This document shows, piece by piece, positions 40,477 through 43,974 of a DNA stretch of 64,000 nt. This DNA comes from a phage. Position numbers and translations under genes: made by a program. Every line of letters starts with the position of its first letter. Positions within the stretch are counted from its first letter, which is position 1. The stretch is taken from the sequence record PZ166176.1. One strand, given 5' to 3'. The notes beneath the pieces are model-generated. The model was not told where the DNA came from, ran no database searches, and was given only the letters and a program-made list of their open reading frames with translations.

Positions 40477-40986
40477 TTAAACAAAATAAAATGGTTGAGA
40501 GAGGCCCAAACGATTCTTTGGGTCGTATACATACCAAGCGTATGCTGTCTTATCTGTTCCACCTGCAACAAACGAAGGCCGTTCTGAAAGGACTATAAGG
40601 TTTGTTGGTGGATTCTTTTGATGGAACTCTCGTCGTTTCTTTGACTCCAAGAAGCCCAACCGAAGAAGATAAATACAAACATCCGCCTCTTTTAAGCTCT
40701 TTTCCAAGAACTCCATTGCTAACTTAAATGGAGGATTTGTGATTATAATGTCGGGACGATTTTCCCATTCATGACTAAAATAATCTTTACCTTCTTCAAG
40801 TTCGCAATATTCTGAACCTTCAGGAAAATGGCGATAAATCGCTTCAGCTTCACCTCTGCAAGGTTCTGCAAAAACCCAACCTTCTTCCTTTAGATTTTTG
40901 AAATCTATAACACTAAACAAACTATTGATTGCTTTTTGCGGTGTCGGATAATAATCGCTCGTTGGGCGATCATAATCTAATGCCAT
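40477..40986 (-). CDS. putative phage Dam-type DNA N6-adenine methyltransferase
   Basis: YYPTP, EPCRGE, DIIITNPPF (motif IV NPPF), ERPSF; size typical of the small phage Dam family. Confidence 0.6.
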   Translation of the reverse strand: MALDYDRPTSDYYPTPQKAINSLFSVIDFKNLKEEGWVFAEPCRGEAEAIYRHFPEGSEYCELEEGKDYFSHEWENRPDIIITNPPFKLAMEFLEKSLKEADVCIYLLRLGFLESKKRREFHQKNPPTNLIVLSERPSFVAGGTDKTAYAWYVYDPKNRLGLSQPFYFV

Positions 40987-41404
40987 CTAAAATCTCCTCT
41001 TTTGTAATATTATCCAACTCTTTAAAGGATGAAATCTCGTTTAATAATCCTATTTGATCAGCTTCTAGAGGATAAGTGTTTTTATCTGTTTTTCTAGACA
41101 GAATATCTTCAACAAACTTATCAATAGCCAAAGAAGAATCATAAAATTTTAAAAGTTGGTAATCCATAGGAGATATTTTGTCATCTCTTAGAAATATTTC
41201 TAACATGTTTTCAGGAGTGTCATGGTTTAGTTTATGTTCACCAAAAATATTAACTTCATAAACATCTTTGCCAAACCAACGTTTCTTCTTTTCAACAGTA
41301 TAGGTTTTTGCCACCAGACCATCTAAACAGTTTCTTGCCCTCTTACATGTTTGACGGTAAGAGTGGATAGCGCCTTCAACAAACTTAGCAGGAACTTGTA
41401 ACAT
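40970..41404 (-). CDS. hypothetical protein (144 aa)
   Basis: ORF. Confidence 0.6.
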   Translation of the reverse strand: MLQVPAKFVEGAIHSYRQTCKRARNCLDGLVAKTYTVEKKKRWFGKDVYEVNIFGEHKLNHDTPENMLEIFLRDDKISPMDYQLLKFYDSSLAIDKFVEDILSRKTDKNTYPLEADQIGLLNEISSFKELDNITKEEILDGIRL

Positions 41405-41427: not shown

Positions 41428-41445
41428 ATGCCCCCGAAGGGGCAG
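41428..41445 (-). other. UUCG-tetraloop GC hairpin between genes
   Basis: Minus strand reads GCCCCTTCGGGGGC. Confidence 0.45.
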
Positions 41446-41449
41446 TTTG

Positions 41450-42142
41450 TTAAATAGCGGTTCCTTCGAAATCCGCCACATTTACGAGATTAATATTTTC
41501 AGATTTAGAAGTCAAGTTGTTTTCTGCAACAGATTTTTCTTCAGTATCCGCCTCGTTACCTGCCACGTTACGAGGTTCTTCTTCACCGTAGGGATTACCG
41601 AATTTCAAAAGATTGATCAATTCTTCTTTGGAGAAGTTTTCTAAATCATCATCTGTTAATTCAATAATCTCGTCTTGTTCTTCAATAAATGTTTCACCAC
41701 CAGAAAAAGCATCTCGCTTTTTAGCTACTTCCATAGCCTGTTCTGGTGTTGCCCCTGCATCAAGAGCAGCTAAAGCAAAATCTGACCCACTCCCTACTGC
41801 ATAATATTCTTCATCAATCGGGTATGCACGTGTTGGGTTGTTACCTTCGTGCAGGAAAATACGTCCGTCTGGATGAACAACAAGTGCAATAAACTCTTCA
41901 TCTTCTTTATCTGGATCAGAGTGAATCATCAAACCAGGGACAGCATCACGTGCTGCTTCGCACTGTAGATTTTGTTCAAACCATTGAAAGAAAGAAAGCA
42001 CGGAGGTCAGACGACCAGCACCACCTACAAGGTAATCTCCAATTTTTCGGACCTTTTTGAAATTAATAGAATCTACACGCCCACCAAAAGTTACCTTACC
42101 GTCACTCAAAATCTTATTTTTGGTTGCAATAATTGTCGTCAC
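41450..42142 (-). CDS. HslV-like N-terminal-Thr peptidase with acidic C-terminal extension
   Basis: MTTIIATKNK (Thr2), KKVRKIGDYLVGGAG, AVGSGSDFALAALDAG match HslV blocks; about 60 extra acidic residues. Confidence 0.7.
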   Translation of the reverse strand: MTTIIATKNKILSDGKVTFGGRVDSINFKKVRKIGDYLVGGAGRLTSVLSFFQWFEQNLQCEAARDAVPGLMIHSDPDKEDEEFIALVVHPDGRIFLHEGNNPTRAYPIDEEYYAVGSGSDFALAALDAGATPEQAMEVAKKRDAFSGGETFIEEQDEIIELTDDDLENFSKEELINLLKFGNPYGEEEPRNVAGNEADTEEKSVAENNLTSKSENINLVNVADFEGTAI

Positions 42143-42645
42143 TATTCTTCCTCCTCTGTTAATGTTTTAAGAACCGCTTTCCCGCCATTCACATATTTGC
42201 AGATGTATTCTATCGCACGTAGTGTCTCTTTGTCAACAAAAATTTGATCAGACGTTGCGAGCGGGTTATTAAGAAGATCACTGCAATCACGAACAAGCAG
42301 TGCTTTCTTATTAAACAAATTACTTAAGAACAGTAACTTCGCCTCTTCTTCTGTTATGTGCAGAAGGCTAGGATCGGAGCCAGCTATTCCTATTATACAA
42401 TCAAACAAGCTTTCTTTACTATCAGAAAGTTCTTGAAAATGGTTTAAAAGCCAATCTTCTCCTAGACACCAACATTTAAACATTTCCAGTTTATCTCGGA
42501 GGGTCATATTCTCTAAAGTAAGAGCAATCTCTTTTTCAATATGGTTTACACAAATTTGACGAAATTCGTTAGGTTTTACGAGTCCCGTTTGATAGCACTC
42601 ATCTATACCGCTTCTTCCGATAGCTATTGTTGCTACACCCATCAA
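42142..42645 (-). CDS. hypothetical protein (167 aa)
   Basis: ORF. Confidence 0.6.
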   Translation of the reverse strand: MMGVATIAIGRSGIDECYQTGLVKPNEFRQICVNHIEKEIALTLENMTLRDKLEMFKCWCLGEDWLLNHFQELSDSKESLFDCIIGIAGSDPSLLHITEEEAKLLFLSNLFNKKALLVRDCSDLLNNPLATSDQIFVDKETLRAIEYICKYVNGGKAVLKTLTEEEE

Positions 42646-42677: not shown

Positions 42678-43436
42678 TTAAATAAACACTTCAGTAATCA
42701 GTTTAGACAAACGTCCACGTTTATTATCGTCCGTTGTCAGTTCAACATATCCAATAAAATCTACAATTGGCTCACGAACACCTTCTTCATTCTCTGGATA
42801 TAAAAGTTCCAAAATTTGATGCAGACCATTGCTACGTTTTTTAATTGCATATGTCTGGCGAACATCGCCTAATACAATAACATGCGTATTAATACCTGCA
42901 CGTTCAATAAGAAGTTTAAGTGTTTCTGTTGACATAAGTTGTGCTTCGTCAATAATGACGATTGTATTATCCAGGGTGGCCCCCAACAAATAGTTAGGAA
43001 TATTCAATTCGATCTTACCTGATCCAATATCGTTTTCCAATTTGTTGGCTGTCATGAATTGCTGGAAAATACGTTTTGTAGATTCATAGTGTGCTGCTAG
43101 TTTATCTGTTTTATCCCCAGACAAGAAACCAATCTGGTCATCTCCGACTTCAGTAGGGTTCTTGATAAAAAGTAGTTTACGGAAGTCTCCTGAACGAAGC
43201 ATCTGCAAAGCTTTCCATAAAGCAACAGAGGTTTTACCAGTCCCTGCCGGAGCATTTACAACAGTCAGATCATTCCAAATCATGCTTTGAACAATCTTAT
43301 TTTGGTCCCCTTCAGGCATAAATTCATCTAAACGGTAATCGTCATTACCTACCGCTTTTGCTGCATAACGGCTTTCAATCTTTGCTGAATTAGCCAGTTT
43401 CTGCCGTTGTGTTTTAGCTGCGGTTTTATTTCCCAT
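42678..43436 (-). CDS. phoH: PhoH-like ATPase
   Basis: Walker A NAPAGTGKT, Walker B VIIDEAQ; ATG at 43436 with SD aaaggag downstream of the hairpin. Confidence 0.8.
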   Translation of the reverse strand: MGNKTAAKTQRQKLANSAKIESRYAAKAVGNDDYRLDEFMPEGDQNKIVQSMIWNDLTVVNAPAGTGKTSVALWKALQMLRSGDFRKLLFIKNPTEVGDDQIGFLSGDKTDKLAAHYESTKRIFQQFMTANKLENDIGSGKIELNIPNYLLGATLDNTIVIIDEAQLMSTETLKLLIERAGINTHVIVLGDVRQTYAIKKRSNGLHQILELLYPENEEGVREPIVDFIGYVELTTDDNKRGRLSKLITEVFI

Positions 43437-43451
43437 AGTAGCACTCCTTTT

Positions 43452-43472
43452 AGAAGGGGCCGAAGCCCCTTT
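43452..43472 (-). other. UUCG-tetraloop GC hairpin between lysozyme and phoH
   Basis: Minus strand reads GGGGCTTCGGCCCC with no U tract after it. Confidence 0.45.
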
Positions 43473-43473
43473 A

Positions 43474-43974
43474 TTAGTTGTAAGCATCTAAAGTTCCAGA
43501 AGTCAGAACTTTAATTACTCGTTCAGCACGGTTTGGCGTCTGGCTATACCATCGGCTTTTACGCATGTTTTTACCTGCTTGAGTATAATATGCATTGCTG
43601 ATTAAAGTCAAGCTATTTTGAAACCCTTCAGCACCTTTTAACCCCAACTGGAAAACCATGTTAATTATTCCCAATTTACGAGTATCACTAACCTTATCAT
43701 AGATTGGTGATAAGATAGTACTGTTTTTTATGTCTCTCTTCACTTTTGCAACATCGTCAGCAAAGATTTGACGGGCTTCTTTTTCCGTGATAACTCCATT
43801 AGTCTTACGACCAAGAAGATTATCTAAGATTTGAATAGCCTTTGCTTTATCTTTTATTTTAGTCAGAAGGTGTCCTATGCCGACTGTCCAATAACCAAGA
43901 TGGTCTTGATAAACAGTAAGCTTCAGTCCTTCATCGACTCGTAGCATATCAAACTCATCTACTACTTTAGCCAT
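43474..43974 (-). CDS. e: T4-type lysozyme (endolysin)
   Basis: MLRVDEGLKLTVYQDHLGYWTVGIGHLLTK, GRKTNGVITEKEA, INMVFQLG, KSRWYSQTPNRAERVIKVLTSGTLDAY parallel T4 lysozyme. Confidence 0.9.
   Translation of the reverse strand: MAKVVDEFDMLRVDEGLKLTVYQDHLGYWTVGIGHLLTKIKDKAKAIQILDNLLGRKTNGVITEKEARQIFADDVAKVKRDIKNSTILSPIYDKVSDTRKLGIINMVFQLGLKGAEGFQNSLTLISNAYYTQAGKNMRKSRWYSQTPNRAERVIKVLTSGTLDAYN

Follow-up and report, generated by a model that had tools for sequence, protein, structure and literature searches.

A proteasome-like threonine peptidase with a two-part C-terminal tail in a phAPEC8-like coliphage, probably of the PPH/RPC type and independent of HslU

The window analyzed here is a 64,000-nucleotide stretch of phage DNA (PZ166176.1) that comes from a Phapecoctavirus (subfamily Stephanstirmvirinae), one of the phAPEC8-like myoviruses of E. 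coli, and is 99.8% identical to phage Mt1B1_P17 over 4 kb. The open reading frame at 41450..42142 is a genuine gene for a small proteasome-like threonine peptidase of putative activity. The gene, its flanking signals and its two upstream neighbors are as follows.

41429..41444, minus strand: 5 nt past the stop codon of the peptidase gene, a terminator-like hairpin TGCCCC-TTCG-GGGGCA with TTTCTT after it (consensus match only)
41450..42142, minus strand: peptidase coding sequence, 230 residues plus stop codon, GTG start, N-terminus MTTIIATKNK
42142..42645, minus strand: gene for a 167-residue helical protein (phrog_14834), directly upstream of the peptidase gene, with a stop/start overlap between the two
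42150..42156, minus strand: Shine-Dalgarno sequence GAGGAGG, 7 nt 5' of the GTG
42207..42236, minus strand: sigma-70-like, promoter-like sequence TTGACA-18-TAGAAT, 11/12 matches (consensus only)
42678..43487, minus strand: gene for a PhoH-like P-loop NTPase (Pfam PF02562, E = 1e-36), two genes upstream of the peptidase gene

The GTG start codon of the peptidase gene shares bases with the TAG stop codon of the upstream reading frame (TAGTG, 42142-42144). The N-terminal MTTI is invariant across all full-length homologues, and the E. coli hslV gene likewise starts with GTG-Thr-Thr. Because these two features are accompanied by a good Shine-Dalgarno sequence, the catalytic threonine is not an artefact of the choice of start codon. 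The promoter-like sequence lies 65 nt 5' of the peptidase start, within the upstream reading frame, and promoter-like sites are not enriched over the region as a whole (18 vs 14.9 expected).

The counterpart of the gene in Mt1B1_P17 is JR327_gp235, labeled "peptidase HslV family", and the protein is 99.6% identical to proteins annotated in the same way in phAPEC8-like phages; the labels in other records are "ATP-dependent protease subunit HslV", "putative 20S proteasome" and "hypothetical protein". Homologues are present in 234 phage records. Those of phi92-like and rV5-like coliphages share 66-77% identity with the query, those of Aeromonas and Vibrio phages share ~35%, with alignments reaching query residues 188-218, and those of Caulobacter and Rhizobium phages align only over the first ~150 residues. 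A scan of 185,579 bacterial species genomes with one peptide pattern gives a 425-bp contig as the sole close match. When 1.84 billion cluster representatives are searched with a profile, 62 clusters match at E<=1e-30 (149-350 residues), ~50 of which carry a C-terminal tail, and the matches that follow these are mostly a continuum of 137-156-residue proteins beginning with MTTI. Canonical HslV does not occur among the best 150 matches of this search. When E. coli HslV (EcHslV) is compared with the same 150 matches, it scores at most 37 bits, mostly with no match whatever, and at most 26 bits against the best non-tailed matches, which are the 137-156-residue proteins. Additionally, 47 structure clusters in BFVD match the AF2 model described below at E<=1e-3. 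Literature searches found no experimental paper on the phAPEC8-like peptidase or on the phage family termed PPH, and no phage proteasome homologue with an experimentally known function.

The encoded protein is a member of the proteasome-like Ntn hydrolase superfamily with the full catalytic set. It matches the Pfam Proteasome family PF00227 with 25.6 bits (gathering cut-off 22.4) and PHROG 1040, "peptidase HslV family", with an E-value of 1.6e-63 across residues 1-229. Among proteins of solved structure, HslVs give the best sequence matches (T. maritima HslV, 1m4y, E = 5e-9), and the identity to EcHslV is ~22-24%. In the AF2 monomer model, the mean pLDDT is 82.8, with most of the core above 90, and a Foldseek search with this model retrieves BPH as the top match, together with HslV and with 20S beta subunits of archaea and eukaryotes, all with E-values of ~1e-10. 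The model and the alignments divide the protein into the following parts.

41672..42142, minus strand: catalytic core, residues 1-157, an Ntn beta-sandwich (AF2, Foldseek, invariant columns)
41894..41923, minus strand: HSDPDKEDEE, residues 74-83, the acidic end of a 16-residue loop that takes the place of two HslV features, the apical helix H2 and the basic cluster at the pore (AF2, alignment)
41588..41662, minus strand: conserved element of the tail (residues 161-185, ELTDDDLENFSKEELINLLKFGNPY), modeled as two short helices that present a hydrophobic face
41453..41587, minus strand: distal tail, residues 186-230, acidic, fast-evolving and predicted to be disordered

The core contains the Thr2 nucleophile, Asp14, Lys30, the G40-G-A-G43 block and the G117-S-G-S120 block, and a propeptide is absent. 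T2, T3, I4, D14, K30 and G117-S118-G119 are invariant among 67 homologues, down to 26% identity. T2, D14, K30 and G117-S-G align with Thr1, Asp17, Lys33 and G-S124-G-G of EcHslV, and the G40-x-A-G block aligns with G45-x-A-G. The assignment to the N-terminal-threonine peptidases of the proteasome/HslV superfamily in the initial annotation is thus borne out, with the catalytic residues intact and PF00227 above its cut-off. The alignment of the N-terminal region with HslV, including Thr2 and the GSGS block, also stands; its proposed boundary at residue 170 does not, since the similarity ends at ~157-160. We infer the name "peptidase" from the conserved residues, because the proteasome homologues BPH and Anbu showed no proteolysis in standard assays (PMC5777263).

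Within this superfamily, the phage protein is not an HslV orthologue. It shares with HslV (ClpQ) the fold, the catalytic residues, an MTT N-terminus exposed by removal of the methionine, and the GTG start; however, HslV has the helix H2, a pocket for the HslU tail, a basic pore and an hslU partner, and lacks the 70-residue extension of the phage protein. The NCBIfam HslV equivalogs are missed by about 100 bits or more (NF003964, 32.2 bits vs a cut-off of 137; TIGR03692, 31.4 vs 157.75). In the AF2 model, a single long helix (residues 45-67) is followed by a 16-residue loop and a strand (residues 84-89), and H2 is absent. The distance from the GxAG block to the next conserved strand is 65 residues in EcHslV, compared with 53 in the tailed clade and 37-50 in the short relatives, so that the H2 region is 12 residues shorter than that of EcHslV. 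The acidic residues D76, D78 and E80-E83 are located just before strand 84-89, and D81 and E82 are nearly invariant among the homologues.

These differences bear directly on the proposal in the initial annotation that the protein assembles with host HslU, in which an HslV-like dodecamer would dock onto the host unfoldase and redirect ATP-dependent proteolysis. The proposal draws on the superfamily similarity and on the HslVs being the best PDB matches by sequence; additionally, the host has hslVU, the phage itself lacks an HslU, and F57, E61 and R35 of EcHslV have identical counterparts in the phage protein. However, H2, which contributes to both the apical surface and the pocket for the HslU tail, is missing, and most of the other pocket residues are altered. 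Lys28 of HslV binds the C-terminal carboxylate of HslU, and the corresponding residue in the phage protein is Ser25. Five residues of EcHslV reportedly hold the C-terminus of HslU (F54, F57, Q114, A79 and K80; PMC6429459); of these, F57 alone is kept (F52), the others being replaced (F54 by L49, Q114 by N102, A79 by D76 and K80 by P77), and L88 is deleted. HslV also carries a basic cluster, R86/R89/K90, at the pore entrance (PMC5777263), which has no counterpart in the phage protein, where the aligned region is either deleted or DPDKEDEE, so the predicted pore is acidic rather than basic. An acidic pore loop likewise sets BPH, which has no unfoldase partner, apart from HslV (PMC5777263, PMC8665760). 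Because the equivalog cut-offs are missed and H2, the pocket and the basic pore cluster are lost, assembly with host HslU is unsupported and appears very unlikely, and the term "HslV-type" does not hold in its strict sense.

The statement in the initial annotation that no HslU-like ATPase lies adjacent to the gene was confirmed and extended. A tblastn search of the window with E. coli HslU gives only noise (E = 7-9), and no HslU is found at E<=10 when the window is searched together with the other 88.5 kb of the genome of Mt1B1_P17, the 99.8%-identical phage. A Walker-A scan of the reading frames in the window finds no AAA+ unfoldase; the frames with this motif encode the PhoH-like NTPase, an exonuclease and a small kinase-like ATPase. 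A profile search among the reading frames of at least 60 residues in the window finds no second proteasome-like subunit. The one AAA+ protein of the genome is Mt1B1_P17 gp041 (PF00004, 29.9 bits), which adjoins an endonuclease gene. It was considered as an unfoldase partner and rejected: since it lies outside the window and has neither an HslU-like nor an HbYX C-terminus, there is no basis to link it to the peptidase.

A comparison with other proteasome homologues suggests where the protein belongs. PPH and RPC, which lack the second helix H2, were described by bioinformatics in 2021; PPH has ~140 residues, and RPC has a C-terminal extension, is listed for Proteobacteria only and carries an extra domain that is left undescribed (PMC8665760; reference members WP_042125023.1 for PPH and WP_140207863 for RPC). 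The phage protein resembles both in its Group I character, with Thr1/Asp17/Lys33 and the Gly block, and in the absence of a propeptide and of H2. Genes of the PPH/RPC kind are expected in tailed phages or in prophage regions; the phage protein is encoded by tailed phages, and its nearest non-tailed relatives, the 137-156-residue proteins beginning with MTTI, are PPH-sized. However, its core of ~157 residues and 70-residue tail exceed the length given for PPH. A C-terminal extension is common to the phage protein and RPC, although RPC is listed for Proteobacteria and not for phages. Judged by these described traits and by the modeled fold, the gene product is probably an H2-less phage proteasome homologue of the PPH/RPC type.

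BPH (PDB 5ovs/5ovt, PMC5777263) resembles the phage protein in having acidic residues where the pore loop lies and in the lack of a gene for a partner unfoldase. In contrast, BPH is bacterial, keeps H2 and lacks a C-terminal tail, and its pore loop is longer and includes a run of five Asp/Glu residues. BPH forms a tetradecamer with 7-fold symmetry. The 20S proteasome beta subunits share the PF00227 match above the cut-off and the Ntn threonine mechanism, but the phage protein has no propeptide, alpha partner, H2 or S12/H5 elements.

The same comparison bears on a non-degradative role, in which the protein would process or ligate specific sequences, as does the proteasome homologue connectase, or would be an Ntn amidohydrolase with a small-molecule or modified-peptide substrate. 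The Ntn/proteasome fold performs ligase chemistry in connectase, and some homologues are perhaps not closed rings (PMC8665760); the missing activity of BPH in standard protease assays (PMC5777263) is also consistent with such a role. However, the hallmark of connectase, a helical S3-S4 insertion over the active site combined with the loss of H1 and H2, is not seen, and helix 45-67 is present in the model. In addition, the closest relatives by sequence and structure are the barrel-forming HslV and BPH, which makes a non-degradative role quite unlikely.

The C-terminal extension noted in the initial annotation is present, although it comprises 70 residues (161-230) rather than ~60 and is not uniformly acidic, residues 161-185 being helical and residues 186-230 disordered in the predictions. 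With 26% Asp and Glu and a net charge of -13, the extension follows a core that is already acidic (17% Asp and Glu, net charge -11). The mean pairwise identity within the clade is 66% for the core, 41% for residues 161-185 and 17% for the distal tail.

The first part, residues 161-185, contains helices at 164-169 and 172-181 in the AF2 model (pLDDT 86-89). The motif ΦT(K/R)E····(M/F/L)(S/T)KE(E/Q)L(L/I)··(L/I)(F/L)(G/P) is found in this region in ~45 of the 60 tailed cluster representatives, including relatives that are only ~35% identical to the query. The relative P0059, which has merely 24 residues past the core, retains this element. The motif, in the form ΦT·E····ΦSKEELΦ, is unmentioned in PMC8665760.

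The second part, residues 186-230, has pLDDT values below 50 over residues 188-214. The distal tails of the clade contain 22.7% Asp and Glu and 7.8% Lys and Arg, compared with 13.7% and 11.5%, respectively, in the long reading frames of the window. The length of the entire tail, measured from residue 161, varies between 12 and 219 residues, and every full-length tailed homologue has a tail of net negative charge. By-eye reading indicates that distant relatives exchange or extend the distal tail with Cys/His-rich, Trp-rich and HeH-like segments. No Pfam domain is found in the tails of 10 relatives, and a PDB profile search with 34 tail segments gives noise as its best match (E = 0.18). Φ-x-Φ patches are more frequent in the distal tails than in shuffled sequences (33 vs 23.7±3.1), an enrichment that carries little weight because the sequences are related.

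Two roles had been suggested for the tail in the initial annotation. Action as a DNA mimic is unsupported, given the disorder of the acidic part, its pairwise identity of 17%, its shrinkage to 12-24 residues in some relatives and, as read by eye, its replacement by HeH-like or Cys/His-rich segments in others. A substrate-recruiting module remains plausible, with the conserved helices of residues 161-185, rather than the acidic stretch, as the candidate. Mimicry of the HslU C-terminus in cis by the tail was also considered and rejected: the likeness of DDDLENF to EDLSRFIL is confined to D/E-D-L-x-x-F, the segment is internal rather than C-terminal and becomes less recognizable in remote relatives (…REEAEKM…), and its would-be binding pocket is not conserved.

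The peptidase gene is part of a minus-strand block of early/middle type that includes genes for Sir2, a DprA-like protein, a Ser/Thr phosphatase, two DNA methyltransferases, PhoH, a lysozyme, glutaredoxin and NrdAB, and a distance of ~30 kb separates it from the genes for head and tail. In phage VEcB, a relative of phi92, a natural deletion joins the N-terminus of PhoH to the peptidase from residue 63 onwards and thereby takes out the 167-residue protein gene and the catalytic threonine. The PhoH, 167-residue protein and peptidase genes are thus dispensable for plaque formation, and the peptidase gene is accessory. These observations also argue against a prohead protease that functions in capsid maturation. 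In favor of that role, the structural module of Mt1B1_P17 contains no gene annotated as such a protease, and a 371-residue reading frame between the portal and head-decoration genes has no assigned function. However, the same-strand neighbors of the peptidase gene function in nucleotide metabolism and host takeover, far from the head genes, and VEcB is viable without the catalytic N-terminus. To our knowledge, no known prohead protease has a proteasome-like fold. This reading is extremely improbable and was rejected on the basis of the gene position and the viable deletion.

The neighboring genes suggest a different partnership, a phage-encoded module in which the 167-residue protein, and possibly the PhoH-like NTPase, would act as a cap, adaptor or regulator on the tail helices. 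The stop/start overlap at TAGTG is consistent with such a module. Homologues of the 167-residue protein lie directly or nearly directly upstream of the tailed homologues in phages whose peptidases are 45-50% identical, and the adjacency persists at 30-33% identity. The gene order of PhoH, one to six reading frames and peptidase recurs in the E. coli phage phi92, Vibrio phage 1.193.O, Aeromonas phage 2L372D and two metagenomic phages, and the VEcB deletion affects all three genes together.

However, the entire block of Nrd, glutaredoxin, lysozyme, PhoH, 167-residue protein and peptidase genes is syntenic across the lineage, so that adjacency is not independent evidence, and the Caulobacter phage CcrPW has a short PPH gene with no PhoH nearby. 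For these two reasons, the proximity of PhoH is weak functional evidence; moreover, PhoH, a P-loop NTPase, matches helicase families and is not similar to HslU. No homologue of the 167-residue protein is detected beside the peptidase genes of Aeromonas and Vibrio phages, where BLASTP reveals no conserved immediate neighbors, and the link to the 167-residue protein may consequently reflect the shared synteny of one lineage rather than function. A fold search with the 167-residue protein gives no informative match. PADLOC reports no defense or anti-defense match for the peptidase or its two neighbors. A phage-encoded module of this kind is therefore considered unlikely, although less so than a partnership with host HslU.

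We favor, with moderate confidence, an accessory and HslU-independent proteasome-like peptidase of the PPH/RPC type whose tail would have a recruiting or regulatory role. Methionine aminopeptidase removes formylmethionine before small P1' residues, and threonine is permitted at this position, as in E. coli HslV. The host enzyme would therefore strip the formylmethionine of the phage protein and expose the threonine nucleophile. The subunits may then assemble into a ring-shaped, self-compartmentalizing peptidase that, like BPH, operates without an AAA+ unfoldase; ring formation without H2 is an assumption of this model, and some proteasome homologues may form other assemblies instead of closed rings (PMC8665760). 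The acidic pore loops and tails could bias the enzyme toward unfolded or basic polypeptides or toward one particular protein of the host or the phage.

Fuchs et al. (PMC8665760) point out that proteasome-like proteins direct their C-termini away from the presumed ring and that these may serve in interactions. If the C-termini of the phage protein point away from the ring in the same manner, it follows that the helices of residues 161-185 are a likely docking or regulatory site. The acidic stretch of residues 186-230 may serve as a flexible spacer or a charge shield, and the translationally coupled 167-residue helical protein would be the best candidate for a partner.

A more speculative extension, which we regard as distinctly unlikely, is a viral "mini-proteasome" composed of the tailed peptidase, the 167-residue protein and perhaps PhoH, which would destroy specific proteins of the host, for example basic nucleoid or defense proteins, early in infection. 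The helices of residues 161-185 would then dock a phage cap or adaptor, or would gate or activate the enzyme in cis in place of HslU. If this is true, the proteasome homologues of phages, and also phage PhoH, which has long been an enigma, would gain a function.

The annotation of the gene is already known, as is the family, including the loss of H2 and the existence of C-terminally extended relatives, which was described computationally in 2021. The present analysis adds modestly to this knowledge in three respects: the re-labeling of the protein with regard to HslU, the two-part structure of the tail and the conserved, translationally coupled neighbor. The finding is ordinary in kind.

For the biology of these phages, the results indicate that the label "HslV family" is not to be read as working with HslU, and that the conserved 25-residue element of the tail, rather than the acidic stretch, is the feature of interest. 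Proteasome-like genes are common in phage genomes. Because E. coli phages that are easy to grow (relatives of phAPEC8, phi92 and rV5) carry the gene and the natural deletion mutant VEcB is available, these phages provide a convenient entry to a viral proteasome homologue without an unfoldase.

The C-terminus of the ORF immediately downstream of the peptidase gene resembles the tail motif of the peptidase (the conserved two-helix element at residues 161-185). This ORF and two hairpins lie in the window as follows:

Window 40970-41404, minus strand: 144-aa ORF (phrog_15078), downstream neighbour of the peptidase gene
Window 41429-41444: hairpin TGCCCC-TTCG-GGGGCA, 3' of the peptidase stop codon
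Window 43453-43472: hairpin GAAGGGGC-CGAA-GCCCCTT, at the junction of the lysozyme and PhoH genes

The 144-aa ORF ends in …SSFKELDNITKEEILDGIRL, which is similar to the peptidase motif DLENFSKEELINLL, and gp057 of phage phi92 retains …EITKEEILSSGK. Within the window, a regular expression for the tail motif picks up the peptidase gene and this neighbour alone; elsewhere it matches approximately once per 20-25 thousand residues, and the likeness of the 144-aa ORF may therefore be due to chance. No second neighbouring gene with the motif was found in the distant phages. Both hairpins are GC-rich with TTCG/CGAA tetraloops, and may represent a recurring terminator or RNA-stability element of the phage.

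Two further genes belong to the closely related phage Mt1B1_P17 and lie outside the window (L010 and L011 are loci fetched from other records, as are L002, L003, L007 and L012 below):

L010:5018-6157: AAA+ protein gp041, 379 aa (PF00004, 29.9 bits)
L011:32273-33388: 371-aa ORF gp147, in the head module

The sole AAA+ protein of the Mt1B1_P17 genome, gp041, matches a PHROG annotated "ATPase", with weak clamp-loader and DnaC-like matches; its gene adjoins an endonuclease gene, and nothing connects it with the peptidase. In the order of the head genes, gp147 comes between portal and head decoration, with a small methyltransferase gene intervening on the portal side. Pfam gives no match to gp147, and its PHROG is of unknown function; because neither a prohead protease nor a scaffold is annotated in the head module, gp147 is the obvious candidate for one of these.

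Four loci come from other records:

L002:2767-3867: 366-aa ORF, annotation "coil containing protein", Vibrio phage 1.193.O
L007:2165-2968: PhoH::peptidase fusion JR328_gp055, annotation "peptidase HslV family", Escherichia phage VEcB
L012: 425-bp contig JAPMLR010000072.1, "Lysobacteraceae bacterium JHOS43"
L003:3432-3983: very divergent proteasome-like ORF 2L372D_210, 183 aa, Aeromonas phage 2L372D

In Vibrio phage 1.193.O, the 366-aa ORF separates PhoH from the peptidase homologue and appears to be an insertion interrupting the conserved block; it carries CxxC…CxxC at its C-terminus, and visual inspection suggests a TnpB/OrfB-type transposon protein. A natural deletion of approximately 1 kb in VEcB joins the N-terminus of PhoH to the peptidase from residue 63 to its end, eliminating the 167-aa gene; the resulting fusion ORF retains neither the catalytic Thr nor the greater part of PhoH. 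The JHOS43 contig encodes peptidase residues 68-208 with 100% protein identity; its presence in this bacterial assembly is almost certainly due to contamination with coliphage DNA.

The second proteasome-like ORF of phage 2L372D, 2L372D_210, is immediately 5' of the tailed peptidase homologue; no counterpart was found in the window. Its N-terminus reads xTCIIAL…, GDK and GCG motifs are present, and it scores 12.8 bits against the peptidase family profile and 15.6 bits against Pfam Proteasome (residues 3-166), which is below the cut-off. Together with the adjoining tailed homologue, 2L372D_210 could constitute a two-subunit arrangement.
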